Sequence record: NC_054934.1
DNA length: 64,000 nt
Source: Escherichia phage teqskov
Direction: 5' to 3' (one strand)
Made by a program: the position numbers and the translations under genes. The notes beneath the pieces are model-generated. The model searched no databases. It worked only from the letters and a program-made list of their open reading frames with translations, and had not been told where the DNA came from. This document shows positions 15,426 through 57,128 of this stretch, piece after piece; within the stretch, counting starts at the first letter, position 1, and the number at the start of each line of letters is the position of its first letter.

Positions 15426-15558
15426 GTATCTAGGCCTTTCCGGGCCTCTCTGGGCATCATTTAGTTTATACCCTTTATAATATATTATCCTACCTTTTAA
15501 TTGTCCCTCCTGACCCTAGAATTCCCTAAAACTTTTTAAAAAATTTTTTCACAAAACT

Positions 15559-15589
15559 GTTTACATCCCTGTTCTTCCATGGTACTATA
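15559..15589 (+). promoter_or_regulatory. T4 early promoter with conserved upstream and leader module
   Basis: tttttcacaaaactGTTTACa...TGgTACTATacaactatcaactactgatacag. Confidence 0.65.
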
Positions 15590-15631
15590 CAACTATCAAC
15601 TACTGATACAGAAAACAATTTGGAGAATGAA

Positions 15632-15895
15632 ATGGATAATTACGGCGAACTGTTCAACTTCTTTATGAAATGTGTTTCAGAAGATTTCGGTCGTACAGTG
15701 AATGATATTAAAGTTATCGGTCCTGATCATCCGATGTTTGAAACTTACGCAGTAATGGGTAATGAAGACGGTCAGTGGTATACTGTAAAGGTTGTGATTA
15801 ACATGTTCACGGCAGAAGGTTATGTTAAACTGTCTTCTAAAGTTTACCATGATAACGACGAAATCGCAGAAGAATATTTCAATAATATGAAATAA
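15632..15895 (+). CDS. Hypothetical protein
   Basis: 87 aa from ATG 15632 with GGAGA SD in the conserved leader. Confidence 0.5.
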   Translation: MDNYGELFNFFMKCVSEDFGRTVNDIKVIGPDHPMFETYAVMGNEDGQWYTVKVVINMFTAEGYVKLSSKVYHDNDEIAEEYFNNMK

Positions 15896-15964
15896 TTGTG
15901 TACAAACACCAAGGACGGTGTTATTATAGACTTATCAAAAACAAATACAGAAACGGAGAAATAA

Positions 15965-16177
15965 ATGACTACTTTAATTATTTGGTTCGACGAAAATGAA
16001 GAAACATACTGCGTGAACATTGGCGAAAGCCCAATGCCAGAATTTGAATCTTCAGATAAAAACTCGGTTGTATCTTGGGCTGAAGGTTATAAAGCAGCAA
16101 AAGGCGATGTTGAAATAGTTTACAAACTCTTGGGAGTAGAGTATAATACTCCCACGGATTATAAAACCCTTAATTAA
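15965..16177 (+). CDS. Hypothetical protein
   Basis: 70 aa ORF with GGAGA SD. Confidence 0.45.
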
Positions 16178-16191
16178 CTAAAGGAAATGCT

Positions 16192-16785
16192 ATGAACATG
16201 CTGAAGAAAATTGTTGAGTTTATTCGCACTAAACTTGGTTCTGCTATGGCTAAAAATTTATCTGTTGAAGAACAGTATACTGCTGCGGCAGCAAAACTAC
16301 TTGATAAGATTAAAGATCTAAAAACTGCTTCTGTTAAATCTATTAATGAAGAAAAACGTATTCGTGAACTTATTGTCGAAAAGAATCGACAGGCCGAATC
16401 AAAAGAGCGTGAAATTCGCAAGCTTCTTTCTGAAGGTCAAGATGTAACAATGCATGCTAAACTCGGCTTGCTATATCGTCGAACAGCTGAACAGTTGACT
16501 ACTAAAGCTGATGGTTATGCTGAAATGCGAATTGAAATCGCCAAGAAAGTAGTTGAATTGGATGATGCTCGCCAAGAACTTGCAGTTAAATTGGAATATA
16601 TCCGTGAAACTCGTGCAGCAAATGCCCTTGGAATTAGTACTGCTGATGATGTAGTTGAAATTGCAGCGCTAACTAAAGTTGATATTGAAGATACTCTCGC
16701 CCGAGTTGAAACCTTTAATGGTAATATTTCTGGGGTTGAAACTACCTCTGCCGATGTTCAGGAATATATTAATTCTCTGAAATAA
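16192..16785 (+). CDS. Coiled-coil protein (possible PspA/IM30-like architecture)
   Basis: 197 aa, heptad-rich charged helices; similarity to PspA is by eye only. Confidence 0.45.
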
Positions 16786-16791
16786 TGATAA

Positions 16792-16805
16792 GGGGCTTCG
16801 GCCCC
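16792..16805 (+). terminator. GC stem with UUCG tetraloop (ggggc-ttcg-gcccc); stabilising hairpin or weak terminator
   Basis: Perfect 5 bp GC stem immediately after the stop codon; no clear T-run. Confidence 0.4.
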
Positions 16806-16826
16806 TATTACTTGGAGTAAGTAGGA

Positions 16827-17432
16827 ATGAAAATGCAAAGTGATTTCAATTCAATGTTTGAAGAGTTCCAAAGACAGGTTGATGTTCCAGACCAATTACT
16901 AAATGCTCTTAAACGCATGGCAGAAGGACGTAATTACTATTGGGGGTCTTCATATGAAACTGATGAAAGTCTTTCTGGATTTTATAAAGGTAAAAAGTCT
17001 TTAATACGTCCTGGAATACTTATTAACAGTATTGAATCAATTCATTTATTAACATGCGATTTTGACGTTGAATTTACTGATTTTGTTTCTCCTGAATGGA
17101 CGGTCTGTTATTTAAACGACGATTATGATTATCTTGGCGTTTATAGTTTAAGTGATGCATGGTTTAAACGTAATTTACAAAAGTCAAATTTATTCTATAT
17201 TGATACTACTGTAAAATTTCAGGGCAAGAAATATTTCTTTACTCTTATAGTTGATTCTGAAACGAAGCATGAAAATAAACGTATTCTTAGTAAAAAGAAT
17301 ATCTTAACTATTGTCGATGTTCTTTTTGATAAATTCGTAGAAAATCCTAATTTTGAAAGCGATTTATTATTAGAAAAATTTGTTAAGGAATGTAGAGAAT
17401 ATGTCAAAGCCATCACTATACCTTCCAAGTAA
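16827..17432 (+). CDS. Hypothetical protein; first of four tandem genes sharing a C-terminal FVKECR motif
   Basis: 201 aa; C-terminus EKFVKECREY. Confidence 0.5.
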   Translation: MKMQSDFNSMFEEFQRQVDVPDQLLNALKRMAEGRNYYWGSSYETDESLSGFYKGKKSLIRPGILINSIESIHLLTCDFDVEFTDFVSPEWTVCYLNDDYDYLGVYSLSDAWFKRNLQKSNLFYIDTTVKFQGKKYFFTLIVDSETKHENKRILSKKNILTIVDVLFDKFVENPNFESDLLLEKFVKECREYVKAITIPSK

Positions 17433-17793
17433 ACCCTTAAAGTATGAATTAAAGCGTCAGATAATTTCTACTGATGTGTTAATAGGTCCTGTGGTAGCTG
17501 TATCATTTGTGATTCTGCTGATTGCTGGAATGGTTATAGACGTTATGACTGATATTGAATCTGGTGCAATATTTGGAGCAACACTAATTCTTCCATTGGT
17601 AGTTCCGCTTTTATTAGTACCTATAAATTGGATAGGATATTGGTATCAAGGAAGACACTATCGTAAACGTGTACGTGATTGGAAAGCTCAGTGTAAAAAG
17701 ATTAAAAAGGAACATCAGCTTAAACTTGCTGCGCATGAATTTGATGAAATTATGAAATTTGTTAAGGAATCACGATGCAAAAGCCAAAACTAA
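17401..17793 (+). CDS. Small membrane protein (two predicted TM helices), C-terminal FVKESRCK
   Basis: ATG 17401; hydrophobic core VVAVSFVILLIAGMVIDV and ILPLVVPLLLVPI. Confidence 0.5.
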   Translation: MSKPSLYLPSKPLKYELKRQIISTDVLIGPVVAVSFVILLIAGMVIDVMTDIESGAIFGATLILPLVVPLLLVPINWIGYWYQGRHYRKRVRDWKAQCKKIKKEHQLKLAAHEFDEIMKFVKESRCKSQN

Positions 17794-18137
17794 ATAAAGT
17801 CAAATATTCTCTTCCTGAGGCACTATTAATTCTTGCCGTATCAGCATTTGCAGCTCTTGCAGGTAGTCTTATTGGATTGTTAATTGACTGTTTTATTTTA
17901 AACATCGACGGCACAGTAATTATAACAGAGGTTTGGAGTGAACTTCGTTTTACTATAGCGATTTCATTATTTTCATTCTTTGGTACAATGTTATATTTTC
18001 ATTATGATAATTTTAAAATAAATTGGCAAAGAAAAAAGGATTACAAAATACAATTAAAGGAATATAATAGCTACATGTCTTATATTGAAAAAGAATCAAT
18101 GGAAGAGTTTGTGAGTGATTGTAGGAAAATTAAATGA
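17775..18137 (+). CDS. Small membrane protein, C-terminal FVSDCRKIK
   Basis: 120 aa; TM segments; stop overlaps next start. Confidence 0.5.
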   Translation: MQKPKLNKVKYSLPEALLILAVSAFAALAGSLIGLLIDCFILNIDGTVIITEVWSELRFTIAISLFSFFGTMLYFHYDNFKINWQRKKDYKIQLKEYNSYMSYIEKESMEEFVSDCRKIK

Positions 18138-19059: not shown

Positions 19060-19590
<531 letters not shown>

Positions 19591-19594
19591 AGTT

Positions 19595-19624
19595 GTTTAC
19601 TTTCTCCTAGAATTGTGATAGTAT
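19595..19624 (+). promoter_or_regulatory. T4 early promoter upstream of denV
   Basis: GTTTAC ... TGaTAGTAT. Confidence 0.55.
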
Positions 19625-19649
19625 ATTCACAGTTACTTGGAGGGATAAA

Positions 19650-20066
19650 ATGACTCGTATTAATTTGACTTTAGTATCTGAACTTGCTGATCAACATTTA
19701 ATCGCAGAATACCGTGAATTGCCACGTGTTTTTGGTATAGTTCGTAAGCATGTGGCAAACGGTAAGCGCGTTAAAGATTTTAAAATATCTTCCGAGTTTA
19801 TTTTAGGTTCTGGTCATGTTACGTTCTTTTACGATAAGTTAGAATTTTTGCGAAAGCGTCAATTAGACATTATAACGGAATGCTTAAAACGAGGGTTCAG
19901 TATAAAAGATACTGAAGTTCCTGACATCAGCGATATTCCAGTAGAATGGAAAAATGATTATAATCCATGCAAATCAGCTATTAAATTGAGTCAACAACGA
20001 CTTGATGAAAAAATTTTAATGAAACCACATTGGTATAAGTATTACGGTAAAAATATTTACATTTAA
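19650..20066 (+). CDS. denV: Endonuclease V (pyrimidine dimer DNA glycosylase)
   Basis: 138 aa; [17 protein letters not shown]...WYKYYGK matches remembered T4 DenV. Confidence 0.93.
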
Positions 20067-20075
20067 AGGAAACAT

Positions 20076-20549
20076 ATGAAAACATATCAAGAATTTATCA
20101 CTGAAGCAGCTATTAATTCTCAAATTATTGCTGAATCTTTTACCGATCTTTTGAAATTTAAAAAAGGTCAAAAAATCACTGCTGTATTGGATGATGGTAC
20201 AGAAGTTGAGATGGATGTACAGGGATATAATTATGCAGTAGATGGAAAACTGTATAATAAATCTCATGCTAAATTTGATTCATTTGACGACTTTGTTAAT
20301 ACAGTTGAAGATGAAAAAACTCGTAGATCCATTGCAACTGGTGATGCTAAGGTTCTTATGGCACATGGTCATGAACGCATTCGCGCTAAACAGAATAAAA
20401 TGGGTGAAGATAATTTTGCATTAGTTGGTTATCAATCTGGTAAACAAACTTATGGCTATCAACGTACTGCTACCATGTATAATAAAAATGGTAAAATCGC
20501 TTTCGTGAATAGTAAAGGTTCTATTCAGTACGTTAAATCGTTCAAATAA
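20076..20549 (+). CDS. Internal-protein-like ORF with capsid-targeting N-terminus MKTYQEFITEA
   Basis: 157 aa; basic; ipII/ipIII locus next to denV, but size differs from T4 IPII (100 aa) and IPIII (194 aa). Confidence 0.6.
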   Translation: MKTYQEFITEAAINSQIIAESFTDLLKFKKGQKITAVLDDGTEVEMDVQGYNYAVDGKLYNKSHAKFDSFDDFVNTVEDEKTRRSIATGDAKVLMAHGHERIRAKQNKMGEDNFALVGYQSGKQTYGYQRTATMYNKNGKIAFVNSKGSIQYVKSFK

Positions 20550-26845: not shown

Positions 26846-26869
26846 AGTCTCCTTCGGGAGACTTTTTTC
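26846..26869 (+). terminator. Rho-independent terminator
   Basis: agtctcc-ttcg-ggagact then TTTTTT. Confidence 0.7.
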
Positions 26870-26878
26870 ATTTTACCG

Positions 26879-26909
26879 GTTTACTTTCCGTTTGAGCTGT
26901 GGTACTATA
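26879..26909 (+). promoter_or_regulatory. T4 early promoter
   Basis: GTTTAC ... TGgTACTATacaac, shared with other copies. Confidence 0.6.
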
Positions 26910-26936
26910 CAACCATCGGATAAAGAGGAGAACATC

Positions 26937-27125
26937 ATGAAAATTGAAGCACTCAATCAAGAAGGAAATATCTACGTCATCATTAATGGTGATTTTTTCG
27001 TCGACATGGATGAAGTTACTAGTGAAGAACTTGTAGAATTTCTTAAGAAACGTTATAATATGTGTGATGAAGTTGCAACTCACATGGCGTGTGCAATATT
27101 CTCTCTTTCATATGTGGTGGAATAA
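26937..27125 (+). CDS. Hypothetical protein
   Basis: 62 aa from ATG 26937 with AGAGGAG SD. Confidence 0.45.
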
Positions 27126-27690: not shown

Positions 27691-27720
27691 GTTTACAAGT
27701 TGGCAAGGTTATGGTATAGT
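27691..27720 (+). promoter_or_regulatory. T4 early promoter
   Basis: GTTTAC ... TGgTATAGT, same module as at 62544. Confidence 0.55.
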
Positions 27721-27852
27721 AATCTTGTCAACTGCCAAGGAGAAGAGAATGAAAGTTTTGTTTGTTGTGTATGTGATGATTCAATATAATTACCCAATGT
27801 TTACTTATAATCTGGTGAACAACATTATTGATATGATTCAGAGGAGTATGTA

Positions 27853-28404: not shown

Positions 28405-28926
28405 ATGTTTATTTCAAGTGGAAGCGGTTTAATTCGTGTTGAATTTAAAAATGACATCTTCCTTAGTCAAGGAGATGATATTATTAAAATGAGTTATGAC
28501 GAAATCAAGAAAATTTGTCATGCTCTTGAAAGTCATGGAAAAGTGAACGCTGTTATTGATATTGGCGATTTATGGGTGACACTTTATGAAGTATCCGAAG
28601 GATTTAACATTGAAGATGAAAATAACATTTTAGCTATTGATAAAAGAAGTGATTTGTTTGATGTATTAAAAGTTTATGAACAGTCAAATGGCGGAAGAAA
28701 AGCTGCATTGATTTATCAAAAACCGCATTCATGTGGAACTGCTTCAATCATTTCAAATATTGAAGATGAAGTTGATACTTATATGTGTGTTTTAAAAGCT
28801 GGTGGTGACCGTCATCCGGATTTTATTTCTATTCGTCAAAACAATGGAGAAATTTCATTATCAAAATCAGAAGCTGAAGCTATGATTAAGTATTTAACAA
28901 CTGTTACGCCTTCAATGAAAGGATAA
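28405..28926 (+). CDS. Hypothetical protein, paralog B of a tandem pair
   Basis: 173 aa; same motifs as 27853. Confidence 0.5.
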   Translation: MFISSGSGLIRVEFKNDIFLSQGDDIIKMSYDEIKKICHALESHGKVNAVIDIGDLWVTLYEVSEGFNIEDENNILAIDKRSDLFDVLKVYEQSNGGRKAALIYQKPHSCGTASIISNIEDEVDTYMCVLKAGGDRHPDFISIRQNNGEISLSKSEAEAMIKYLTTVTPSMKG

Positions 28927-28928
28927 TT

Positions 28929-29390
28929 ATGATTATTAATGAAAACTCTTGGCACTATAAATTATTCAAATTGTTTAACGATGAATGGCAACGACCTAAG
29001 ACACTATGCGCATATTTTTGGTCTATTGCCATTCCTACATTTTTCGTTTCTATTTTTGGATGTGCTATACTCGTAGGGCTAACAATTATTTGTGCAGAAA
29101 GCCTACAACGTTGGCTTATTTTTGGTAGTTTATGGACTTTGCTTCCATCAGCATTTATACTTGCGCTTTTGGTTGTTTTACTTATTATCGGTTCATTTGT
29201 TATTCCTGCACATTTGCGTGAAAAATATAAAGATTATAAATGGAAAAAGGATTATGCTTTACACGTAGAAAATATTGATAGGGCGTATAAAGGTTTACCT
29301 CCTATTCAACCTAAGAAATCGATTATCGTCGAATTTTTAAAAGCTCGTAAAGCTAAAGTATGTCCTGTTATTGAATATAAGGCTGAATGA
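28929..29390 (+). CDS. Membrane protein (two TM helices)
   Basis: 153 aa; hydrophobic stretches. Confidence 0.5.
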   Translation: MIINENSWHYKLFKLFNDEWQRPKTLCAYFWSIAIPTFFVSIFGCAILVGLTIICAESLQRWLIFGSLWTLLPSAFILALLVVLLIIGSFVIPAHLREKYKDYKWKKDYALHVENIDRAYKGLPPIQPKKSIIVEFLKARKAKVCPVIEYKAE

Positions 29391-30400: not shown

Positions 30401-30402
30401 TA

Positions 30403-30426
30403 GGGAGCCTTCGGGCTCCCTTTTTT
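30403..30426 (+). terminator. Rho-independent terminator
   Basis: gggagcc-ttcg-ggctccc then TTTTTT. Confidence 0.75.
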
Positions 30427-30448
30427 ATTTAAATTTTTTCACAAAATG

Positions 30449-30479
30449 GTTTACAAGCATAAAGCTTTGTGGTACTATA
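30449..30479 (+). promoter_or_regulatory. T4 early promoter with conserved leader module
   Basis: tttttcacaaaatgGTTTACa...TGgTACTATacaactatcaact. Confidence 0.65.
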
Positions 30480-30512
30480 CAACTATCAACTGATACGGAT
30501 TTGGAGAATAAA

Positions 30513-31481
30513 ATGAAAACTGTAACTATCAATAAGGGTATCTACTTCGGTAAAGAAATCTCTGGAACTTTTGAGCTCTTAGGCGAATGGTTCCCAGATA
30601 ATGCTCCGGTAGATGCACAAGGAGATGGTAAAGTTTTTGTTGAAATTGACGGTAAGCGTCGCGGTGTTTGGGTTTACAAATCAGACATTTCATATGATGG
30701 TGTAAAAGTTGAAGAAGTTAAAGAATCGTATGAAGATATGAAAACCCGCATTAATAAAAGATTTAATGTTATGGGAATGATGACGAATGGTATTATTAAT
30801 GGAAATATTCGTTCATTAATTATCTCTGGCGCAGCAGGTATCGGTAAAACGTATTCTTTAGATAAAGCTTTAAATAAAGCAAATGATATTGGATACATTG
30901 AATATAAAAGCATTAACGGTAAAATCTCCGGTATCGGTCTTTATGAACAGCTTTGGAATAATCGTGAAGAGAATTCTGTCCTTTTGATTGATGATGTGGA
31001 TGTTTTCTCTGATATGGACATTCTTAATCTTCTGAAAGCTGCTCTGGACACTGGAGAGACCCGTAAAGTCTGCTGGAGCACTGCATCTTCTTACTTGGAA
31101 GAAAAAGGCATTGACCGTGAGTTTGAATTTAAAGGAACGATTGTTTTTATCACAAACGTTGACATTGACCGCGAATTAGACCGTGGTACTAAACTTGCTC
31201 CACATTTACAAGCATTAGTGTCCCGCTCGGTTTATTTGGATTTGGGTGTTCACACTAATGAAGAAATTATGGTCAGGGTTGAAGATGTTATTCTTTCAAC
31301 TGACATGATGCAAAAGCGCGGTCTTTCTGATGAAGAAACTTATAAAGCATTATCATGGATGAAAGTCAATGTTAATCGTTTACGCAATGTTTCACTGCGT
31401 ACTGCTCTTTATCTTGCTGACTTTATTATGACCGACAAAAATGGTTGGGAAGAAATTGCTGAGGTTACTCTTCTGAAATAA
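30513..31481 (+). CDS. AAA+/P-loop ATPase
   Basis: 322 aa from ATG 30513; Walker A GAAGIGKT, Walker B LLIDDVD. Confidence 0.65.
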   Translation: MKTVTINKGIYFGKEISGTFELLGEWFPDNAPVDAQGDGKVFVEIDGKRRGVWVYKSDISYDGVKVEEVKESYEDMKTRINKRFNVMGMMTNGIINGNIRSLIISGAAGIGKTYSLDKALNKANDIGYIEYKSINGKISGIGLYEQLWNNREENSVLLIDDVDVFSDMDILNLLKAALDTGETRKVCWSTASSYLEEKGIDREFEFKGTIVFITNVDIDRELDRGTKLAPHLQALVSRSVYLDLGVHTNEEIMVRVEDVILSTDMMQKRGLSDEETYKALSWMKVNVNRLRNVSLRTALYLADFIMTDKNGWEEIAEVTLLK

Positions 31482-31570: not shown

Positions 31571-31885
31571 ATGGAGGTAATGATGTTATACTCAAAGGCT
31601 CGTGAAATTTACGAAACTAAAATTAAAGAAGCAGTATTTCAGTTCGCAACGACAATGCGTTGGACAAATGACTGGGAGTATTCAAAAAATCATAAGAAGC
31701 CCATGGTGACAAGAAAGGCTCATATGTTAGTGTTAATAGACCGTGAGCAGATTAAAGCCCGAGAAGCCCTCCAGAATCATAAAAAGGCTGCCTTTGAATG
31801 GTTTATGGATAACACTGCTCCTGAGACTAAGAAAGCGGTAAGTGCATGGTTCAGTGGAAAAAATTGTGAAAGAAGTTTCTTTTAG
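31571..31885 (+). CDS. Hypothetical protein; start ambiguous (31571/31580/31583)
   Basis: ~100 aa ORF; GGAGG just before the ATG cluster. Confidence 0.45.
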   Translation: MEVMMLYSKAREIYETKIKEAVFQFATTMRWTNDWEYSKNHKKPMVTRKAHMLVLIDREQIKAREALQNHKKAAFEWFMDNTAPETKKAVSAWFSGKNCERSFF

Positions 31886-31887
31886 TG

Positions 31888-31918
31888 GTTTACAAGACTG
31901 TTCCTCTGTGGTACTATA
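31888..31918 (+). promoter_or_regulatory. T4 early promoter, near-identical to the copy at 56825
   Basis: GTTTACaagactgttcctctgTGgTACTATacaactatcaactac. Confidence 0.65.
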
Positions 31919-31945
31919 CAACTATCAACTACGGAGGAACACAAA

Positions 31946-32473
31946 ATGAACGCTAAAGATATTTTCAACCTGGTAAATTACAACGATGGTAAATTTAAAT
32001 CAGAAGCACAAAGAAAGTTCTTTAATGACATCTCAATCGGAGGTGAAATCACTGTTGATGGAGGACAAATTTACAAATCTCGTTGGAATTGGATCGTTAT
32101 TATCGATGAGATTGGTATTGTAGAAATTTACAAGAATACGAATAAAAATCGTACATTACACTGGTCTCGTGATACTAACGAACAGTACAAAAAGGATAAA
32201 GCATCTAAATTATCTCGTGTAACTCAAGAAGATATTGAGTTCATCAAGAAAGATATTTTGATGTATGATAACTTAATTGCTGAAGAGCAAGCTGTTATTG
32301 ATAAATTTGACGAGATTAAAGCTTCTCGTGAAATTCCTGATTTTATGAAAGAATCAGTAAATGAACGATACACTCTCATTTCAGAGCGTATTGAAACTTA
32401 CAAAAAGCAAAGAGCTGAACGCCAAAATACTCTTCGGAAGTTTGAAGAACGGTTAAAGACGGTACTCGCATAA
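31946..32473 (+). CDS. Hypothetical protein
   Basis: 175 aa ORF with GGAGG SD. Confidence 0.5.
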   Translation: MNAKDIFNLVNYNDGKFKSEAQRKFFNDISIGGEITVDGGQIYKSRWNWIVIIDEIGIVEIYKNTNKNRTLHWSRDTNEQYKKDKASKLSRVTQEDIEFIKKDILMYDNLIAEEQAVIDKFDEIKASREIPDFMKESVNERYTLISERIETYKKQRAERQNTLRKFEERLKTVLA

Positions 32474-39535: not shown

Positions 39536-41349
39536 CAATTGAAAAAGAAATTGAAGGATTGATTCATAAAACTAATAAAGACCTTTTAAACGAGAATGCT
39601 AATAAAGATTCTCGTGTTTTTCCAACTCAACGGGACCTTATGGCTGGTATTGTGTCTAAACACATTGCCAAAAATATGGTCCCGTCTTTTATTATGAAAG
39701 CGCATGAAAGCGGAATTATTCATTTCCATGATATTGATTATTCCCCTGCTCTTCCATTTACTAATTGTTGTTTAGTAGATTTAAAAGGAATGCTTGAAAA
39801 CGGATTTAAGCTAGGTAATGCGCAGATTGAAACTCCTAAATCAATTGGAGTTGCTACTGCAATTATGGCACAAATTACTGCGCAAGTTGCTTCTCACCAA
39901 TACGGCGGAACGACTTTTGCGAATGTAGATAAAGTACTTTCTCCTTATGTTAAACGCACCTATGCAAAACATATTGAGGATGCAGAAAAATGGCAAATCG
40001 CTGATGCGTTGAATTATGCTCAATCTAAAACAGAAAAAGACGTATACGATGCATTTCAAGCTTATGAATATGAAGTAAATACTCTCTTTAGTTCAAACGG
40101 ACAAACGCCTTTTGTAACAATTACATTTGGTACAGGAACTGACTGGACTGAACGAATGATTCAGAAAGCAATTCTGAAAAATCGTATTAAAGGTCTTGGT
40201 CGTGATGGGATAACTCCTATTTTCCCTAAGCTTGTTATGTTTGTTGAAGAAGGTGTTAATCTTTATAAAGACGATCCGAACTATGATATTAAACAGCTTG
40301 CTCTAGAGTGCGCAAGCAAAAGAATGTATCCTGATATTATTTCAGCTAAGAACAATAAAGCTATCACTGGTTCATCTATTCCTGTTTCTCCGATGGGATG
40401 CCGTAGTTTCTTGAGCGTATGGAAAGATTCGACTGGTAATGAAATTCTTGATGGACGTAATAATCTTGGTGTTGTAACACTGAATCTTCCTCGCATCGCG
40501 TTAGATTCTTATATTGGAACACAATTCAATGAACAGAAATTTATCGAATTGTTCAATGAACGAATGGATTTATGTTTTGAAGCATTGATGTGTAGAATTA
40601 GTTCCTTAAAAGGAGTTAAAGCGACTGTTGCTCCTATTCTTTACCAAGAAGGTGCATTCGGGGTTCGTCTTAAACCTGATGACGATATAATTGAGTTATT
40701 TAAAAACGGCAGAAGTTCAGTGTCTCTAGGATACATTGGTATTCACGAATTAAATATTCTTGTCGGTCGTGATATTGGACAAGAAATTTTAACTAAAATG
40801 AATGCTCATCTTAAGCAGTGGACTGAAAGAACCGGATTTGCTTTTAGTTTGTATTCTACTCCTGCTGAAAACCTTTGTTATCGCTTCTGTAAACTTGATA
40901 CAGAAAAATATGGAAGTGTAAAGGATGTTACTGATAAAGGCTGGTACACTAACAGTTTTCATGTTTCAGTAGAAGAAAATATTACTCCGTTTGAAAAGAT
41001 TTCTCGTGAAGCGCCATATCATTTCATTGCGACAGGTGGTCACATTTCTTATGTTGAACTTCCTGATATGAAAAATAACTTAAAAGGTCTTGAGGCCGTG
41101 TGGGATTATGCTGCACAGCATTTAGATTATTTTGGTGTTAATATGCCAGTAGATAAGTGTTTTACATGCGGAAGCACCCATGAAATGACTCCTACTGAAA
41201 ACGGATTTGTTTGTTCTATTTGTGGAGAAACTGATCCTAAAAAGATGAACACAATAAGAAGAACATGTGGTTATTTGGGAAATCCGAACGAACGCGGATT
41301 TAATCTCGGTAAAAATAAAGAAATCATGCATAGGGTTAAACACCAATGA
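39532..41349 (+). CDS. nrdD: Anaerobic ribonucleoside-triphosphate reductase NrdD, uninterrupted
   Basis: 605 aa continuous ORF; MTIEKEIEGLIHKTNKDL N-terminus; C-terminal Cys cluster and glycyl-radical region. Confidence 0.92.
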   Translation: MTIEKEIEGLIHKTNKDLLNENANKDSRVFPTQRDLMAGIVSKHIAKNMVPSFIMKAHESGIIHFHDIDYSPALPFTNCCLVDLKGMLENGFKLGNAQIETPKSIGVATAIMAQITAQVASHQYGGTTFANVDKVLSPYVKRTYAKHIEDAEKWQIADALNYAQSKTEKDVYDAFQAYEYEVNTLFSSNGQTPFVTITFGTGTDWTERMIQKAILKNRIKGLGRDGITPIFPKLVMFVEEGVNLYKDDPNYDIKQLALECASKRMYPDIISAKNNKAITGSSIPVSPMGCRSFLSVWKDSTGNEILDGRNNLGVVTLNLPRIALDSYIGTQFNEQKFIELFNERMDLCFEALMCRISSLKGVKATVAPILYQEGAFGVRLKPDDDIIELFKNGRSSVSLGYIGIHELNILVGRDIGQEILTKMNAHLKQWTERTGFAFSLYSTPAENLCYRFCKLDTEKYGSVKDVTDKGWYTNSFHVSVEENITPFEKISREAPYHFIATGGHISYVELPDMKNNLKGLEAVWDYAAQHLDYFGVNMPVDKCFTCGSTHEMTPTENGFVCSICGETDPKKMNTIRRTCGYLGNPNERGFNLGKNKEIMHRVKHQ

Positions 41350-41816
41350 ATTATGATAGATTTTATCCCTGTGATTTTGTGAACGGCCCTGGATGCAGGG
41401 CCGTTCTTTTCGTTACAGGTTGTTTGCATAAATGCGAAGGGTGTTATAATAAATCAACATGGAATGCTAGAAATGGTATTCCATTTACTGGTGAAACACT
41501 AGAACAATTGATTGAATGTTTGAATAATGATTATATAGAAGGATTGACTATAACTGGAGGTGACCCTCTCTATCCTGATAACCGAGATGTTATTCATTGC
41601 ATTGTTCAAACTATTAAAAATCTTTATCCCAATAAAAGCATTTGGTTGTGGACAGGATATAAGTTTGAAGATATTAAACAACTAGAAATGCTTAAATATG
41701 TTGATGTTATTATTGATGGGAAGTATGAGAAAAATCTTCCGACCAAAAAGCTGTGGCGAGGATCAGATAATCAGCGACTTTGGTCAAATACCGATGGGGT
41801 GTGGACACATGATTAA
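41346..41816 (+). CDS. nrdG: Anaerobic RNR activating protein (radical SAM) NrdG
   Basis: 156 aa; CxxxCxxC cluster (CLHKCEGC). Confidence 0.88.
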   Translation: MNYDRFYPCDFVNGPGCRAVLFVTGCLHKCEGCYNKSTWNARNGIPFTGETLEQLIECLNNDYIEGLTITGGDPLYPDNRDVIHCIVQTIKNLYPNKSIWLWTGYKFEDIKQLEMLKYVDVIIDGKYEKNLPTKKLWRGSDNQRLWSNTDGVWTHD

Positions 41817-42458: not shown

Positions 42459-42480
42459 GGGCCCTCTGGGCCTTTCTTTC
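42459..42480 (+). terminator. Rho-independent terminator
   Basis: ggccc-tct-gggcc then T-rich tract. Confidence 0.55.
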
Positions 42481-42552
42481 TCGCATTCTGTATATTACCA
42501 TTCTAAGCTATCGTTCCCTTCTTGTCATTCCCTAAAATATTTTCACAAAGTT

Positions 42553-42582
42553 GTTTACAAGAAGTTCAAACCGTGGTATTAT
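42553..42582 (+). promoter_or_regulatory. T4 early promoter with conserved upstream module
   Basis: ccctaaaatattttcacaaagttGTTTACa...TGgTATTAT. Confidence 0.6.
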
Positions 42583-42612
42583 TAACATATGAATTACCTT
42601 TGAGGAATTGAT

Positions 42613-42789
42613 ATGGTTGATAAAGAGATTAAAATTGACCAGTACTATCGTGTTAACGGACATATCGTTATTGTTACAGCAGTCGATGATTTAGATGTTC
42701 ATTATACTGTGATTAAATGGAACAAACGTATGATTTGTGATCGTGCTGTATTTAGTTCAGTTGCTAAGGAAATTAAACTCCATGGGTAA
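42613..42789 (+). CDS. Small hypothetical protein (58 aa)
   Basis: ATG 42613 with GAGGAA SD. Confidence 0.4.
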   Translation: MVDKEIKIDQYYRVNGHIVIVTAVDDLDVHYTVIKWNKRMICDRAVFSSVAKEIKLHG

Positions 42790-43214: not shown

Positions 43215-43415
43215 ATGAATCCTGAATCTATGTTATCGCAAAAGCTTCGTGAAGAACGCGCCAAATTTTTCCAGAACATGAAACACAATGGTATTGAGGA
43301 TGAAGTTTTTCTAAATTGGTTCTGGAATAATAAGTACACAGCATGTGAAGGAGCTTTGTTATTGTCAGTCGCAATGATGTACGAAGGCTGGAAGGGTGCC
43401 AAACAGTTTAGCTAA
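43215..43415 (+). CDS. Hypothetical protein
   Basis: 66 aa ORF followed by a terminator. Confidence 0.4.
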   Translation: MNPESMLSQKLREERAKFFQNMKHNGIEDEVFLNWFWNNKYTACEGALLLSVAMMYEGWKGAKQFS

Positions 43416-43433
43416 GGGCTTCGGCCCTTTTTT
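43416..43433 (+). terminator. Rho-independent terminator (gggc-ttcg-gccc, then TTTTTT)
   Basis: Perfect GC stem, UUCG loop, T-run. Confidence 0.75.
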
Positions 43434-45798: not shown

Positions 45799-45851
45799 TA
45801 TATTGCTTTATAAATTTTTGGTAAAATAAACCAAAACAAAGAGGATATTAA

Positions 45852-47054
45852 ATGAAAGTATGTATTTTTATGGCTCGAGGTCTTGAAGGTTGTGGTGTAA
45901 CTAAATTTTCTCTTGAGCAACGTGATTGGTTTATTAAGAATGGTCATGAAGTAACTTTGGTTTATGCTAAAGATAAATCATTTACTCGTAATTGCGCGCA
46001 TGATTATAAATCATTTTCAATTCCGGTTTTATTGGCAAAAGAATATGATAAAACACTTAAGCTGGTAAATGATTGTGATATTCTAATTATCAATTCAGTT
46101 CCTGCTACTTCGGTTGAAGAAGACACTATTAATAACTATAAAAAAATTATTGATAACATTAAACCTTCTGTTCGTGTTGTAGTTTATCAACATGACCATT
46201 CTTCTCTTTCTTTGCGCCGAAATTTGGGATTAGAAGAAACTGTTCGTCGAGCTGATGTTATTTTTAGCCATTCTGATAATGGTGATTTTAATAAAGTTCT
46301 GATGAAAGAATGGTATCCTGAAACAGTTTCTCTGTTTGATGATATTGAAGAAGCACCGACAGTATATAACTTTCAGCCTCCTATGGATATTGCGAAGGTT
46401 CGGTCAACCTACTGGAAAGATGTTTCTGAAATTAACATGAATATCAACCGTTGGATTGGTCGTACGACTACATGGAAAGGTTTTTATCAGATGTTTGATT
46501 TTCATGAAAAACATCTTAAACCTGCAGGACTAAGTACTATTATGGAAGGTCTGGAACGTTCTCCAGCGTTCATTCCTATTAAAGAAAAAGGAATTCCATA
46601 CGAGTATTATCGTCTTCATCAAGTAGACCAAATTAAAATTGCTCCTAATTTGCCAACGCAAATTCTTGACCGTTATGTAAATAGCGAAATGCTTGAACGT
46701 ATGAGTAAATCCGGTTTTGGTTATCAGCTGAGTAAGTTGGATAAAAAATATCTACAGCGCTCTTTAGAATATACTCATCTCGAGCTTGGTGCATGTGGAA
46801 CAATTCCGGTATTTTGGAAATCTACTGGCGAAAATTTAAAATTCCGTGTTGATAATACTCCTTTGACCTCGCATGATAGCGGTATCATTTGGTTTGATGA
46901 AAATGACATGGAATCAACATTTGAACGTATTAAAGAACTGTCATCTGATCGAACTCTTTATGACCGCGAACGCGAAAAAGCTTATGAATTTTTGTATCAG
47001 CATCAAGATTCAAGCTTCTGCTTTAAAGAACAGTTTGACATTATTACAAAATAA
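45852..47054 (+). CDS. agt: DNA alpha-glucosyltransferase
   Basis: 400 aa; close match to remembered T4 alpha-gt across its length. Confidence 0.9.
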   Translation: MKVCIFMARGLEGCGVTKFSLEQRDWFIKNGHEVTLVYAKDKSFTRNCAHDYKSFSIPVLLAKEYDKTLKLVNDCDILIINSVPATSVEEDTINNYKKIIDNIKPSVRVVVYQHDHSSLSLRRNLGLEETVRRADVIFSHSDNGDFNKVLMKEWYPETVSLFDDIEEAPTVYNFQPPMDIAKVRSTYWKDVSEINMNINRWIGRTTTWKGFYQMFDFHEKHLKPAGLSTIMEGLERSPAFIPIKEKGIPYEYYRLHQVDQIKIAPNLPTQILDRYVNSEMLERMSKSGFGYQLSKLDKKYLQRSLEYTHLELGACGTIPVFWKSTGENLKFRVDNTPLTSHDSGIIWFDENDMESTFERIKELSSDRTLYDREREKAYEFLYQHQDSSFCFKEQFDIITK

Positions 47055-47055
47055 A

Positions 47056-47070
47056 GGGCTTCGGCCCTTT
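47056..47070 (+). terminator. Rho-independent terminator (gggc-ttcg-gccc-ttt)
   Basis: Immediately after the agt stop. Confidence 0.6.
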
Positions 47071-47093
47071 AGCTTTATACGGAGTTTGATATA

Positions 47094-51074: not shown

Positions 51075-51761
51075 ATGAAACTGTCTAAAGATACTACTGC
51101 TCTGCTTAAAAATTTCGCTACTATTAACTCCGGTATTATGCTTAAATCCGGTCAATTTATTATGACTCGCGCAGTTAATGGTACAACTTATGCGGAAGCA
51201 AATATTTCTGACGTTATTGATTTTGATGTAGCAATTTACGATTTGAACGGTTTTCTCGGTATTCTGTCTCTAGTTAATGATGATGCAGAAATTTCCCAGT
51301 CAGAAGATGGAAATATTAAAATTGCTGATGCTCGTTCAACAATTTTTTGGCCAGCAGCCGATCCGAGTACAGTAGTTGCTCCTAATAAACCAATTCCATT
51401 CCCGGTAGCATCTGTTGTTACTGAAATTAAAGCTGAAGACCTTCAACAACTGTTGCGTGTATCTCGTGGTCTGCAAATTGATACAATTGCTATCACGGTA
51501 AAAGAAGGTAAAATCGTAATTAACGGTTTTAATAAAGTAGAAGATTCTGCTCTGACCCGTGTTAAATATTCTTTGACTCTTGGTGATTATGATGGTGAAA
51601 ATACATTTAATTTCATTATCAATATGGCAAATATGAAAATGCAACCAGGAAATTATAAACTTCTGCTTTGGGCAAAAGGTAAACAAGGCGCTGCTAAATT
51701 TGAAGGTGAACATGCGAATTATGTAGTAGCTCTTGAAGCTGATTCTACCCACGATTTTTAA
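51075..51761 (+). CDS. 45: Sliding clamp gp45
   Basis: 228 aa; matches remembered T4 gp45. Confidence 0.95.
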   Translation: MKLSKDTTALLKNFATINSGIMLKSGQFIMTRAVNGTTYAEANISDVIDFDVAIYDLNGFLGILSLVNDDAEISQSEDGNIKIADARSTIFWPAADPSTVVAPNKPIPFPVASVVTEIKAEDLQQLLRVSRGLQIDTIAITVKEGKIVINGFNKVEDSALTRVKYSLTLGDYDGENTFNFIINMANMKMQPGNYKLLLWAKGKQGAAKFEGEHANYVVALEADSTHDF

Positions 51762-51765
51762 TAAA

Positions 51766-51780
51766 GGGCTTCGGCCCTTT
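51766..51780 (+). terminator. Hairpin/terminator gggc-ttcg-gccc-ttt
   Basis: Immediately after the gene 45 stop. Confidence 0.55.
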
Positions 51781-51812
51781 ATAATTTACACTAAAACTTG
51801 AATGAGGAAATT

Positions 51813-53337: not shown

Positions 53338-53338
53338 A

Positions 53339-53707
53339 ATGATTGAAATTACTCTTAAAAAACCTGAAGATTTTCTGAAAGTAAAAGAAACTTTGACTCG
53401 TATGGGAATTGCTAATAATAAAGATAAAGTTCTGTATCAGTCCTGTCATATTCTTCAGAAAAAAGGACTATACTATATCGTTCATTTTAAAGAAATGCTT
53501 CGTATGGATGGTCGCCAGGTTGAAATGACAGAAGAAGATGAAGTTCGTCGTGATTCGATTGCATGGCTATTAGAAGATTGGGGACTGATTGAAATCGTCC
53601 CTGGTCAAAGAACTTTTATGAAAGATTTAACTAATAACTTCCGAGTTATTTCTTTTAAACAAAAACATGAATGGAAACTCGTTCCTAAATATACGATTGG
53701 TAATTAA
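53339..53707 (+). CDS. regA: Translational repressor RegA
   Basis: 122 aa; matches remembered T4 RegA. Confidence 0.92.
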   Translation: MIEITLKKPEDFLKVKETLTRMGIANNKDKVLYQSCHILQKKGLYYIVHFKEMLRMDGRQVEMTEEDEVRRDSIAWLLEDWGLIEIVPGQRTFMKDLTNNFRVISFKQKHEWKLVPKYTIGN

Positions 53708-53708
53708 T

Positions 53709-53930
53709 ATGACTGCTATAACTCCACAAGAATACATGGCGTCTCTTAAAGAAAAATATAATCTTTCTGCAACAGAAACACTTTTTGATTTACCAGAAAA
53801 CCTCCAACTAAAATTTCAGGTAGAATTTCAAAAATTAATTCATCCAGAACAAAAACACTTTACCGCAGTCGTTAAGTCAATTAATGCAGATGGAATGACA
53901 ATTTTTCACCGACAAATAGTACTAATTTAA
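53709..53930 (+). CDS. Hypothetical protein between regA and 43
   Basis: 73 aa from ATG 53709; followed by a GC hairpin. Confidence 0.45.
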   Translation: MTAITPQEYMASLKEKYNLSATETLFDLPENLQLKFQVEFQKLIHPEQKHFTAVVKSINADGMTIFHRQIVLI

Positions 53931-53934
53931 GCAA

Positions 53935-53953
53935 GGGGCTTCGGCCCCTTATT
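53935..53953 (+). terminator. Hairpin/terminator ggggc-ttcg-gcccc
   Basis: Perfect GC stem with UUCG loop, then T-rich tract. Confidence 0.55.
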
Positions 53954-53971
53954 TGGAGTATAATATATATC

Positions 53972-54010
53972 AAGAGCCTAATAACTCGGGCTATAAACTA
54001 AGGAATATCT
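53972..54010 (+). promoter_or_regulatory. gp43 translational operator (hairpin with AAUAACUC loop next to the SD)
   Basis: gagccu-AAUAACUC-gggcu then AAGGAA SD; this loop is the known T4 gene 43 operator. Confidence 0.7.
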
Positions 54011-56707
54011 ATGAAAGAATTTTATATCTCTATTGAAACAGTCGGAAATAACATTGTTGAACGTTATATTGATGAAAACGGAAAGGAACGTACCCGTGAA
54101 GTAGAATATCTTCCGACTATGTTTAGGCATTGTAAGGAAGAGTCAAAATACAAAGACATCTATGGTAAAAACTGCGCTCCTCAAAAATTTCCATCAATGA
54201 AAGATGCTCGAGATTGGATGAAGCGAATGGAAGACATCGGTCTCGAAGCTCTCGGTATGAACGATTTTAAACTCGCTTATATCAGTGATACATATGGTTC
54301 AGAAATTGTTTATGACCGAAAATTTGTTCGTGTAGCTAACTGTGACATTGAGGTTACTGGTGATAAATTTCCTGACCCAATGAAAGCTGAATATGAAATT
54401 GATGCTATCACTCATTACGATTCAATTGATGACCGTTTTTATGTTTTCGACCTTTTGAATTCAATGTACGGTTCAGTATCAAAATGGGATGCAAAGTTAG
54501 CTGCTAAGCTTGACTGTGAAGGTGGTGATGAAGTTCCTCAAGAAATTCTTGACCGAGTAATTTATATGCCATTCGATAATGAGCGTGATATGCTCATGGA
54601 ATATATCAATCTCTGGGAACAGAAACGACCTGCTATTTTTACTGGTTGGAATATTGAGGGATTTGACGTTCCGTATATCATGAATCGCGTTAAAATGGTT
54701 CTCGGTGAACGTAGTATGAAACGCTTCTCTCCAATCGGTCGAGTAAAATCTAAACTAATTCAAAATATGTACGGTAGCAAAGAAATTTATTCTATTGATG
54801 GCGTATCTATTCTTGATTATTTAGATTTGTACAAGAAATTCGCTTTTACTAATTTGCCGTCATTCTCTTTGGAATCAGTTGCTCAACATGAAACCAAAAA
54901 AGGTAAATTACCATACGACGGTCCTATTAATAAACTTCGTGAGACTAATCATCAACGATACATTAGTTATAACATCATTGACGTAGAATCAGTTCAAGCA
55001 ATTGATAAAATTCGCGGGTTTATCGATCTAGTTTTAAGTATGTCTTATTACGCTAAAATGCCTTTTTCCGGTGTAATGAGTCCTATTAAAACCTGGGATG
55101 CCATTATTTTTAACTCATTGAAAGGTGAACATAAGGTTATTCCTCAACAAGGTTCGCACGTTAAACAGAGTTTTCCGGGTGCATTCGTATTTGAACCTAA
55201 ACCAATTGCTCGTCGATATATTATGAGTTTTGACTTGACGTCTCTGTATCCGAGCATTATTCGTCAGGTTAACATTAGTCCTGAGACTATTCGTGGTCAG
55301 TTTAAAGTTCATCCAATTCATGAATATATCGCAGGAACAGCTCCTAAACCGAGTGATGAATATTCTTGTTCTCCGAATGGATGGATGTACGATAAGCATC
55401 AAGAAGGTATCATTCCAAAGGAAATCGCTAAAGTATTTTTCCAGCGTAAAGATTGGAAAAAGAAAATGTTCGCTGAAGAAATGAATGCCGAAGCTATTAA
55501 AAAGATTATTATGAAAGGCGCAGGGTCTTGTTCAACTAAACCTGAAGTTGAACGATATGTTAAGTTCAGTGATGATTTCTTAAATGAACTATCGAATTAT
55601 ACTGAATCTGTTCTCAATAGTTTGATTGAAGAATGTGAAAAAGCGGCTACACTTGCTAACACAAATCAGCTGAACCGTAAAATTCTTATTAACAGCCTTT
55701 ACGGTGCTCTTGGTAATATTCATTTCCGTTACTATGATTTGCGAAATGCTACTGCTATCACAATTTTCGGCCAAGTTGGTATTCAGTGGATTGCTCGTAA
55801 AATTAATGAGTATCTGAATAAAGTATGTGGAACTAATGGCGAAGATTTCATCGCAGCAGGTGATACTGATTCGGTATATGTTTGTGTAGATAAAGTTATT
55901 GAAAAAGTTGGTCTTGACCGATTCAAAGAGCAGAACGATTTAGTTGAATTCATGAATCAGTTCGGTAAGAAAAAGATGGAACCTATGATTGATGTTGCAT
56001 ATCGTGAGTTATGTGATTATATGAATAACCGCGAGCATCTGATGCATATGGACCGTGAAGCTATTTCTTGCCCTCCACTTGGTTCAAAGGGCGTTGGTGG
56101 ATTTTGGAAAGCGAAAAAGCGTTATGCTCTGAACGTATATGATATGGAAGATAAGCGATTTGCTGAACCGCATTTAAAAATCATGGGTATGGAAACTCAG
56201 CAGAGTTCAACGCCTAAAGCGGTCCAAGAAGCTCTCGAAGAAAGTATTCGTCGTATTCTTCAGGAAGGTGAAGAGTCTGTCCAAGAATATTACAAGAACT
56301 TCGAGAAAGAATATCGTCAACTTGACTATAAAGTTATTGCTGAAGTAAAAACTGCGAACGATATAGCGAAATATGATGATAAAGGTTGGCCAGGATTTAA
56401 ATGTCCGTTCCATATTCGTGGTGTGCTAACTTATCGTCGAGCTGTTAGCGGTTTAGGTGTAGCTCCAATTTTGGATGGAAATAAAGTAATGGTTCTTCCA
56501 TTGCGTGAAGGAAATCCATTTGGTGACAAATGCATTGCTTGGCCGTCGGGTACAGAACTTCCAAAAGAAATTCGTTCTGACGTACTGTCTTGGATTGACT
56601 ACTCAACTTTGTTCCAAAAATCGTTTGTTAAACCGCTTGCAGGCATGTGTGAATCGGCTGGTATGGACTATGAAGAAAAAGCTTCGTTAGACTTCCTGTT
56701 TGGCTGA
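54011..56707 (+). CDS. 43: DNA polymerase gp43
   Basis: 898 aa; exonuclease and polymerase motifs (GDTDS); extensive match to remembered T4 gp43. Confidence 0.97.
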   Translation: MKEFYISIETVGNNIVERYIDENGKERTREVEYLPTMFRHCKEESKYKDIYGKNCAPQKFPSMKDARDWMKRMEDIGLEALGMNDFKLAYISDTYGSEIVYDRKFVRVANCDIEVTGDKFPDPMKAEYEIDAITHYDSIDDRFYVFDLLNSMYGSVSKWDAKLAAKLDCEGGDEVPQEILDRVIYMPFDNERDMLMEYINLWEQKRPAIFTGWNIEGFDVPYIMNRVKMVLGERSMKRFSPIGRVKSKLIQNMYGSKEIYSIDGVSILDYLDLYKKFAFTNLPSFSLESVAQHETKKGKLPYDGPINKLRETNHQRYISYNIIDVESVQAIDKIRGFIDLVLSMSYYAKMPFSGVMSPIKTWDAIIFNSLKGEHKVIPQQGSHVKQSFPGAFVFEPKPIARRYIMSFDLTSLYPSIIRQVNISPETIRGQFKVHPIHEYIAGTAPKPSDEYSCSPNGWMYDKHQEGIIPKEIAKVFFQRKDWKKKMFAEEMNAEAIKKIIMKGAGSCSTKPEVERYVKFSDDFLNELSNYTESVLNSLIEECEKAATLANTNQLNRKILINSLYGALGNIHFRYYDLRNATAITIFGQVGIQWIARKINEYLNKVCGTNGEDFIAAGDTDSVYVCVDKVIEKVGLDRFKEQNDLVEFMNQFGKKKMEPMIDVAYRELCDYMNNREHLMHMDREAISCPPLGSKGVGGFWKAKKRYALNVYDMEDKRFAEPHLKIMGMETQQSSTPKAVQEALEESIRRILQEGEESVQEYYKNFEKEYRQLDYKVIAEVKTANDIAKYDDKGWPGFKCPFHIRGVLTYRRAVSGLGVAPILDGNKVMVLPLREGNPFGDKCIAWPSGTELPKEIRSDVLSWIDYSTLFQKSFVKPLAGMCESAGMDYEEKASLDFLFG

Positions 56708-56720
56708 TAGAATAAATCTA

Positions 56721-56741
56721 GGGACCTCCGGGTCCCTTTTT
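56721..56741 (+). terminator. Rho-independent terminator
   Basis: gggacc-tccg-ggtccc then TTTTT. Confidence 0.75.
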
Positions 56742-56824
56742 CATACAAGTAATATAAATCTATACTTATGAAAAACAGATGATTCTGGACCTTTAGAATT
56801 CCCTAAAAAATTTTTCACAAAACT

Positions 56825-56855
56825 GTTTACAAGACTGTTCCTCTGTGGTATTATA
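56825..56855 (+). promoter_or_regulatory. T4 early promoter, near-identical to the copy at 31888
   Basis: tttttcacaaaactGTTTACaagactgttcctctgTGgTATTATacaactatcaactactgatacag. Confidence 0.65.
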
Positions 56856-56891
56856 CAACTATCAACTACTGATACAGATTTGGAGAATAAA

Positions 56892-57128
56892 ATGAAAATT
56901 GTTATGGGATGCTTAGCAGTTTGTTTAGTTGCATTAGCAGCAGTTCCATTTGTTAGTGTTGAAAATGATACTCAACCTGTGATTGAATCTAGCACCGTTA
57001 TTCACACTAATGGTAAAATATCAGTTAAAATTGATGATAATCTTCATGTGAATACAAATGGATCTTTAGGTGTGCAAATGGGTAATACCTGCATAAGCAC
57101 TACTGGAGTAATTACTACTTGCATTTGA
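56892..57128 (+). CDS. Small membrane or secreted protein
   Basis: 78 aa from ATG 56892; hydrophobic N-terminus; GGAGA SD in the conserved leader. Confidence 0.45.
   Translation: MKIVMGCLAVCLVALAAVPFVSVENDTQPVIESSTVIHTNGKISVKIDDNLHVNTNGSLGVQMGNTCISTTGVITTCI

Follow-up and report, generated by a model that had tools for sequence, protein, structure and literature searches.

Dispersed early promoter and leader cassettes of the T4 type in the genome of Escherichia phage teqskov

Location and extent of the cassettes

A stretch of 64,000 nucleotides of Escherichia phage teqskov (NC_054934.1), referred to here as the window, contains a family of short early promoter and leader cassettes, each ending at the start codon of the gene downstream. 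The phage is a Tequatrovirus; two pieces of the window, of 6 kb and 13 kb, are 95–98 % identical to hundreds of Tequatrovirus genomes. Relative to T4, the window corresponds to the reverse complement of ~85.6 to 19.2 kb at 92–98 % identity, in an alignment interrupted by approximately 18 insertions/deletions or replacements. Beyond ~11 kb, nearly all genes of the window are on the + strand. The genes downstream of the cassettes are orthologues of T4 e.8, nrdC.10, nrdC.8, 55.6 and imm.1.

An earlier note on this DNA had described a module of about 80 bp with full copies at 15541–15634 (e.8), 30426–30515 (nrdC.10), 31868–31948 (nrdC.8) and 56805–56894 (imm.1 locus) and a partial copy at 42528–42615 (55.6). 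All five stretches exist with the sequence described, and a repeat finder places them into one family. Exact matches to the core 16-mer TATACAACTATCAACT are limited to 15586, 30476, 31915 and 56852, always on the + strand, against an expectation of 0.10 in the window even when two mismatches are allowed. Likewise, TTTTCACAAARNKGTTTAC occurs five times in the window (0.10 expected) and GGAGAATAAAATGAAAA five times (0.01 expected); the sites listed for the latter are 11486, 11778 (with one mismatch), 30503 and 56882.

In gapped alignments over the coordinates of the earlier note, the four full copies are 61–82 % identical in pairs, and the longest exact blocks that they have in common are 18–27 nt. 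The closest pair is that of nrdC.8 and the imm.1 locus, which had been called almost identical. From GTTTAC to CAACTAC, the copies starting at 31888 and 56825 agree at 44 of 45 bases, including all 14 positions of the 14 nt spacer, although they are 24,937 bp apart. When 14 early-promoter-like sites are compared over the first 22 nt past the −10 element, the four copies are 64–100 % identical to each other; other pairs are mostly 23–59 % identical, with several unrelated pairs reaching 64–68 %. Identity in the leader and spacer therefore goes beyond what a generic promoter consensus would give.

The partial copy at 42528–42615 resembles the others in its upstream half only, which carries ATTCCCTAAAA, TTTTCACAAAGTTGTTTAC and TGGTATTAT; its leader is unrelated. 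What it has in common with the family is limited to the extended −10 and the upstream module, and it belongs to the generic/upstream class. The nrdC.8 copy also differs upstream, because its upstream half is the end of the nrdC.9 coding sequence. An additional related copy, absent from the earlier list, is located at 26879–26939 (GTGGTACTATACAACCATC...; TGGTACTATACAACCATC), upstream of the mobD.5 orthologue.

Table 1. Coordinates of the cassettes and of related features in the window
Feature	Position	Strand	Details
e.8 cassette	15521..15634	+	ATTCCCTAAAA 15521-15531; UP-like TTTTCACAAAACT 15546-15558; -35 GTTTAC 15559-15564; TGG 15580-15582; -10 TACTAT 15583-15588; predicted +1 ~15595; ATG 15632-15634
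e.8 cassette, RegB/S1-like site	15622-15632	+	GGAGAATGAAA, 10/11 match to consensus
e.8 cassette, terminator	15397-15420		139 nt upstream of -35
nrdC.10 cassette	30402..30515	+	terminator 30402-30421; UP-like 30436-30448; -35 30449-30454; -10 30473-30478; predicted +1 ~30485; GGAGAATAAAA 30503-30513, exact RegB/S1 match; ATG 30513-30515
nrdC.10 cassette, junctions in relatives	30489 and 30501-30521
nrdC.8 cassette	31868..31948	+	-35 31888-31893; -10 31912-31917; predicted +1 ~31924; GGAGG 31933-31937; ATG 31946-31948
imm.1-locus cassette, after gene 43	56720..56894	+	terminator 56720-56737; ATTCCCTAAAA 56798-56808; UP-like 56812-56824; -35 56825-56830; -10 TATTAT 56849-56854; predicted +1 ~56861; GGAGAATAAAA 56882-56892, exact RegB/S1 match; ATG 56892-56894 of a 78-amino-acid open reading frame
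55.6 early promoter	42459..42615	+	terminator-like stem 42459-42473; ATTCCCTAAAA 42527-42537; -35 42553-42558; -10 TATTAT 42577-42582; GAGG-type Shine-Dalgarno; ATG 42613-42615
mobD.5 related copy	26846..26939	+	terminator 26846-26863; -35 26879-26884; TGGTACTAT ACAACCATC; GAGGAG Shine-Dalgarno; ATG 26937-26939
Internal-protein locus, second sub-family	11072..11790	+	three tandem cassettes, -35 at 11100, 11430, 11730
Homing-endonuclease differences from T4	28423-29386, 40067-40070, 41346-41366, 45836-45861, 58654-59601

Promoter anatomy and early expression

The window was searched with a stringent pattern (TTTACN, 14 nt, TGn, TAnnnT), with first-order Markov simulations as the null. All 15 matches lie on the + strand, and the − strand has none; 0.56 are expected per strand. 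In 14 of the 15, a G precedes TTTAC, the spacer is exactly 17 nt, and the Shine–Dalgarno sequence and ATG of a real open reading frame follow 28–46 nt past the −10 element. A generic sigma-70 scan was non-discriminating in this A/T-rich genome, with 80 sites found and 80 expected, and results for the other two segments were similar. All five sites, the one at 42528 included, have GTTTACA at −35, a 17 nt spacer, TGn and a −10 element of TACTAT or TATTAT. The early consensus given for PST/T4 is TTTACW-N17-TAYWAT (PMC2839356, PMC4122927), and five of five sites fit it.

Published T4 early promoters consist of UP, −35, TGn and −10 elements with additional consensus regions. The cassettes are stacks of short blocks, of which different promoters carry different combinations. 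The UP-like block TTTTCACAAARNKGTTTAC is found at 15546, 30436, 42540 and 56812 and is missing at 31868, where the position is occupied by coding sequence; TTTTCACAAA followed by GTTTAC is found at the same four positions and at 11417. ATTCCCTAAAA is found upstream of e.8, 55.6 and the imm.1 locus (Table 1). The spacers fall into a few discrete types. In the four full copies, TGGTAYTAT is followed by ACAACTATCAACT and then by a variable stretch.

Comparisons were made with eight relatives (T4, fPS-65, TH09, CJY920, teqhad, RB6, JE01 and G10400) and with IMG/VR contigs. A scan of IMG/VR with the core motif yielded only 20 stretches, all on a small number of T4-like contigs; they served as a source of alleles and are too few for statistics. 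ACAACTATCAACT is invariant in ~60 copies from 14 genomes, covering 8 loci, whereas the neighbouring spacers differ. The stretch beyond +8 varies between genomes by insertions/deletions and substitutions. In other T4-like contigs the same core precedes motA, identified by an open reading frame that matches both MotA Pfam domains.

In the Yersinia phage fPS-65, a 'predicted early promoter' is annotated at each of the orthologous sites; the GenBank and RefSeq records of T4 carry no annotated promoter features. A time-resolved study of T4 infection places e.8, nrdC.10, nrdC.8, 55.6 and imm.1 among the early genes in both RNA and protein. Promoter anatomy, strand bias, the fPS-65 annotation and the early T4 orthologues all point to the cassettes driving early transcription, as had been proposed. 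The +1 was taken to be the A located 7 nt past the −10 element, so that the start positions given here, like the strength of the promoters, are predictions. A literature search returned no usable mapping of T4 transcription starts by RNA sequencing.

Leaders and RegB/S1 sites

Every copy has GGAG or GAGG followed by ATG, in agreement with the earlier suggestion that the cassettes supply the Shine–Dalgarno sequence and start codon of the downstream gene. The leaders are 22–37 nt long from the predicted +1, and their folds are no better than those of shuffled sequences (z-scores of +0.7 to +0.85). RegB cuts early mRNAs within GGAG (RegB review; Durand 2006, PMC1702504). The complete RegB/S1 site has 11 nt, GGAGRAYARAA, and in T4 efficient cleavage needs GGAGAAUAAAA, its most frequent form (Durand 2006, PMC1702504). 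Against an expectation of 0.4, the window contains four occurrences of this 11-mer, all of them GGAGAATAAAA and all immediately preceding the ATG of a cassette gene. Two of the four full copies, nrdC.10 and the imm.1 locus, carry the exact site, both in unstructured leaders. With the exact 11-mer placed before the ATG, the end of the cassette would be a ribosome-binding site, a shut-off site and a start codon in one. Judged from the motif, messages with GGAGAATAAAA are the likeliest targets of shut-off by RegB.

Stem loop structures

Four of the five sites have an intrinsic terminator upstream, ending 28 (nrdC.10), 80 (55.6), 88 (imm.1 locus) and 139 nt (e.8) before the −35 element. No hairpin is found inside the 15541 or the 56805 cassette proper. 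In the nrdC.8 cassette, the spacer (31899–31912) pairs with the leader and Shine–Dalgarno region (31928–31941) in a 14 bp stem. Folded as RNA, this stem has a predicted energy of −22.4 kcal/mol (z-score −4.66), and none of 200 shuffled sequences was as stable. The predicted nrdC.8 start lies in the loop, so that the ribosome-binding site would be hidden only in read-through transcripts started further upstream. At 56825, the same patch of spacer lacks a partner arm (z-score −0.32). This suggests that the patch at 56825 was copied from an nrdC.8-type cassette.

Several other stem loops were observed. In the T4 denV cassette (around 65,360–65,430, upstream of denV; GTTTACATCTCCTGTAGGTATGATACTATAGACCTATCAACTACAGGAGA) the spacer appears, by eye, to pair with the Shine–Dalgarno region. 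The denV GGAG is resistant to cleavage (Durand 2006, PMC1702504). The denV allele of the window is only 78 % identical to that of T4 and is preceded by a different cassette type. An early-promoter-like pair at 27691–27728 and 62544–62581 is 87 % identical over 38 nt at a distance of 34.9 kb, and each member has an inverted repeat around its TATAGT −10 element. Additionally, stem loops of the GGGCTTCGGCCC type, with a UUCG loop, are located between genes at 16788–16813, 43401–43432, 47041–47076, 51751–51786 and 53921–53956, and are probably terminators or RNA-stabilizing hairpins.

Recombination at the cassettes

The cassettes had been put forward as likely sites of homologous recombination, and specific junctions and mosaic alleles in the relatives bear this out for individual cases. 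At the nrdC.10 locus, fPS-65 and TH09 have different inserted genes, yet both diverge from the window right after ...TATACAACTATCAA, at about +5. The inserts of fPS-65 and JE01 at this locus close with an internal-protein-type cassette, the leader of which is that of the window at 11430. The JE01 insert is flanked by a 21 nt repeat, TTGGAGAATAAAATGAAAACT, of the Shine–Dalgarno/ATG block. At the imm.1 locus, the 78-amino-acid open reading frame that follows the 56805 cassette is missing from T4, RB6 and JE01, and the junction is a repeated ATGAAAAT. Crossovers in PeSL cassettes were mapped between the −10 element and the Shine–Dalgarno/ATG region (PMC2839356, PMC4122927), and the junction zone seen here is the same.

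The spacers themselves are mosaic. Between gene 43 and imm.1, the spacers of T4 and the window differ by four changes within six bases, and all four changes are to the bases of the nrdC.8 cassette. The window and teqhad have an imm.1-locus spacer identical to the nrdC.8 type, and CJY920 has one identical to the e.8 type; among 14 genomes, e.8-type and nrdC.8-type halves occur in each of the four possible combinations. The e.8 cassette of fPS-65 is of the imm.1 type in its spacer and in its upstream part. Point mutation is a poor explanation for shared patches of this kind, and the alleles fit an exchange between copies 25–41 kb apart.

In total, 65 distinct breakpoints were collected between 13.6 and 59 kb against the eight relatives, the cassette zone being defined as −35 to ATG+20. 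Five of the 65 fall in cassettes where a uniform null expects 1.2 (p=0.006), and 46 of the 65 fall at gene junctions of any kind.

Many of the breakpoints outside cassettes arise where a homing endonuclease gene is present in one genome and missing from another. Compared with T4, the window is without mobD, the I-TevII intron in nrdD, mobC, mobB and the segA/beta-glucosyltransferase block (Table 1). At the first and last of the positions listed, other sequence replaces the T4 genes missing there. In addition, two terminator copies (14839–14874 and 15394–15429; 92 % identical) bracket a 520 bp segment that is missing from T4, RB6 and JE01, and at the same terminator fPS-65 and TH09 have an insert of ~660 bp. 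Such terminator-flanked differences indicate that terminator stem loops also act as points of exchange.

Proposed function and alternative explanations

It is very likely that the cassettes are T4-type early promoters, leaders and ribosome-binding units of the kind already described, and that they serve occasionally as points of recombination. Immediately after infection, host RNA polymerase with sigma-70 would fire the cassettes, which are made up, in this order, of the UP-like TTTTCACAAA, the −35 GTTTAC, a 17 nt spacer, the extended −10 TGGTAYTAT, ACAACTATCAACT and a variable stretch. ACAACTATCAACT would combine the discriminator with the initial transcribed block. The best copies end in GGAGAATAAAATG, which would combine a Shine–Dalgarno sequence, an optimal RegB/S1 site and the start codon. 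The short, unstructured leader would let ribosomes load, and a few minutes later RegB would cut within GGAG and silence the messages; cleavage in this particular phage is predicted from the motif. Selection on these functions would be what mainly keeps the blocks similar. As the copies are stretches of 20–45 bp of near-identity dispersed through the early regions, they would also be used by the homologous recombination of the phage, which may trade patches between copies and join different gene modules to one cassette, as in the PeSL model.

Several observations weigh against this account. Inexact RegB/S1 sites are present in the other two full copies, with 10 of 11 positions matching at e.8 (15622) and 8 of 11 at nrdC.8 (31933). 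The GGAG of T4 nrdC.8 is only moderately cleaved (Durand 2006, PMC1702504). The part that corresponds to the stem loop of PeSL cassettes is heterogeneous: three full copies have a terminator 28–139 nt upstream, and a hairpin between the −10 element and the Shine–Dalgarno sequence is present only at 31868. Early timing and RegB cutting in this phage are deduced from orthology and motif matches. Finally, the excess of breakpoints in cassettes disappears when the null is built from gene junctions. Cassette junctions were broken in 3 of 7 cases and other junctions in 30 of 90 (odds ratio 1.5, p=0.45), in a rough test in which heuristic gene calls recognized 7 of the 10 cassette junctions. Some breakpoints in related genomes do lie at these cassettes, but they are not enriched there over other gene junctions; in this sample the cassettes are usable for exchange but not privileged.

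This absence of enrichment would also be expected if conserved or convergent function alone explained the similarity, with no recombination between copies. Nearly every conserved block is a known element (UP, −35, TGn/−10 or RegB/Shine–Dalgarno/ATG), and the nrdC.10-type spacer is locus-specific across 10 genomes and has not been homogenized. However, the 15 nt spacer has no known sequence requirement, yet its types are shared between loci and four haplotypes exist. The patch of four changes in six nucleotides that separates the imm.1 alleles of the window and T4 matches nrdC.8 at every changed base. At nrdC.8 the patch pairs with the Shine–Dalgarno region, whereas at 56825 a partner arm is missing. 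Different gene modules are also joined inside the leader. Function without any exchange is therefore considered unlikely. A small mobile element resembling a transposon or a miniature inverted-repeat transposable element (MITE), or an integron-like cassette with a dedicated recombinase, is extremely improbable. The copies are dispersed and flank variable genes, and the authors of the PeSL work left site-specific recombination open, having detected mini-circles in RB49 and phi1 (PMC2839356, PMC4122927). Nevertheless, no terminal inverted repeats or target-site duplications surround the four copies, where the only inverted repeats found are terminators, A/T palindromes and the nrdC.8 hairpin. 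The junction points vary (past +5, in the Shine–Dalgarno/ATG block or in the spacer), as in homologous exchange and not as at a fixed site, and every copy is co-oriented with the gene that it drives. The missing terminal repeats and the variable junctions rule out a transposon-like element.

The invariance of ACAACTATCAACT beside differing spacers, together with the fact that no function for it was found in the literature searched, could instead indicate a role for the conserved leader ACAACTATCAACTACTGATAC as a structured regulatory RNA or as the target of a small RNA or protein. This is highly unlikely, as the leaders are unstructured, half of ACAACTATCAACT lies upstream of the predicted +1, and the sequence varies beyond +8. 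The Rfam matches in the window are tRNAs only, and with folds at the level of shuffled sequences this rules out a structured leader RNA. A further proposal, which is regarded as doubtful, is that the 22 nt TGGTACTATACAACTATCAACT (extended −10, discriminator and first seven transcribed bases) marks a distinct subclass of immediate-early promoters (motA, the imm.1 locus, e.8, nrdC.10, nrdC.8 and one further gene). Such a subclass might differ in its response to a phage factor, such as ADP-ribosylation of RNA polymerase by Alt, while its copies trade patches of ~5–25 nt by ectopic gene conversion over 25–41 kb.

Other loci in the window

A second sub-family of cassettes is located at the internal-protein locus, with three tandem copies spaced 330 and 300 bp apart. 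Two of the three have the same GGAGAATAAAATGAAAA 3′ block, and this cassette type is also found at the nrdC.10 locus of fPS-65 and JE01. When folded, the cassettes at 11100 and 11730 form strong hairpins centred on the −10 element (z-scores of −5.0 and −3.9). The open reading frames that follow these cassettes begin with MKTY(K/Q)EF, and the same start recurs at 20075 (20061–20108). In T4 and RB6, the gene content between the internal-protein cassettes differs from that of the window.

The 78-amino-acid open reading frame between the cassette and imm.1 (56892–57128) has a signal-peptide-like start (MKIVMGCLAVCLVALAA...), is present in most of the relatives and has no Pfam match. A 219 bp segment between regA and gene 43 (53707–53927) is missing from 6 of the 8 relatives; in fPS-65 and teqhad it is annotated as a small open reading frame. 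The seven tRNA matches of the Rfam scan are clustered at 13279–13975. Beside this cluster, none of the seven relatives that extend over the segment 13761–14524 matches the window there; T4 has the homing endonuclease gene segB in the corresponding tRNA region.

Significance and comparison with known systems

For annotation, the stringent pattern provides 14 plausible early promoters in the window and leaves the opposite strand empty. The mosaic alleles show, on a small scale but cleanly, how dispersed regulatory repeats of a lytic phage can undergo ectopic exchange. The gene-junction test additionally indicates that cassettes are not the sole places at which modules are swapped, and perhaps not the preferred ones.

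The closest known counterparts are the early promoters of T4, which have the same −35 GTTTAC, 17 nt spacer, TGn, −10 TAnnnT and A/T-rich UP region and the same orientation with early genes. The cassettes in the window are their direct orthologues, at 92–98 % DNA identity. The differences, none of them essential, are the imm.1 allele of the window with its nrdC.8-type spacer, its TATTAT −10 element and the extra 78-amino-acid open reading frame.

For T4 gene e, soc and gene 49, transcripts from upstream form a hairpin that masks the ribosome-binding site, with a promoter located inside the hairpin. The nrdC.8 cassette would likewise hide its Shine–Dalgarno sequence in a stem with the predicted start in the loop. 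However, its internal promoter is of the early and not the late type, its hairpin is a predicted one, and the other three copies are without it.

With respect to RegB/S1 sites, GGAGAATAAAA before the ATG is the published optimal 11 nt site (Durand 2006, PMC1702504), located in unstructured early leaders, although it is exact only at 30503 and 56882. PeSL cassettes consist of an AT-rich region, an early promoter, a Shine–Dalgarno sequence and an ATG at the 3′ end, and have a role in modular shuffling (Arbiol 2010, PMC2839356; Comeau 2014, PMC4122927). Those of RB49/phi1 and PST/T4 are the same composite unit beside variable small open reading frames, with the same crossover zone. Of the PeSL features, the promoter with its Shine–Dalgarno/ATG unit and individual cases of recombination are found here; the stem loop is not constant in the sub-family of the window, and breakpoints are no richer than at other junctions.

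The feature is already known, in that T4 early promoters, RegB-sensitive ribosome-binding sites and PeSL shuffling have all been published. Mildly new are the mosaic of four haplotypes at imm.1, the invariance of the −10, discriminator and initially transcribed bases in ~60 copies, and the nrdC.8 hairpin.

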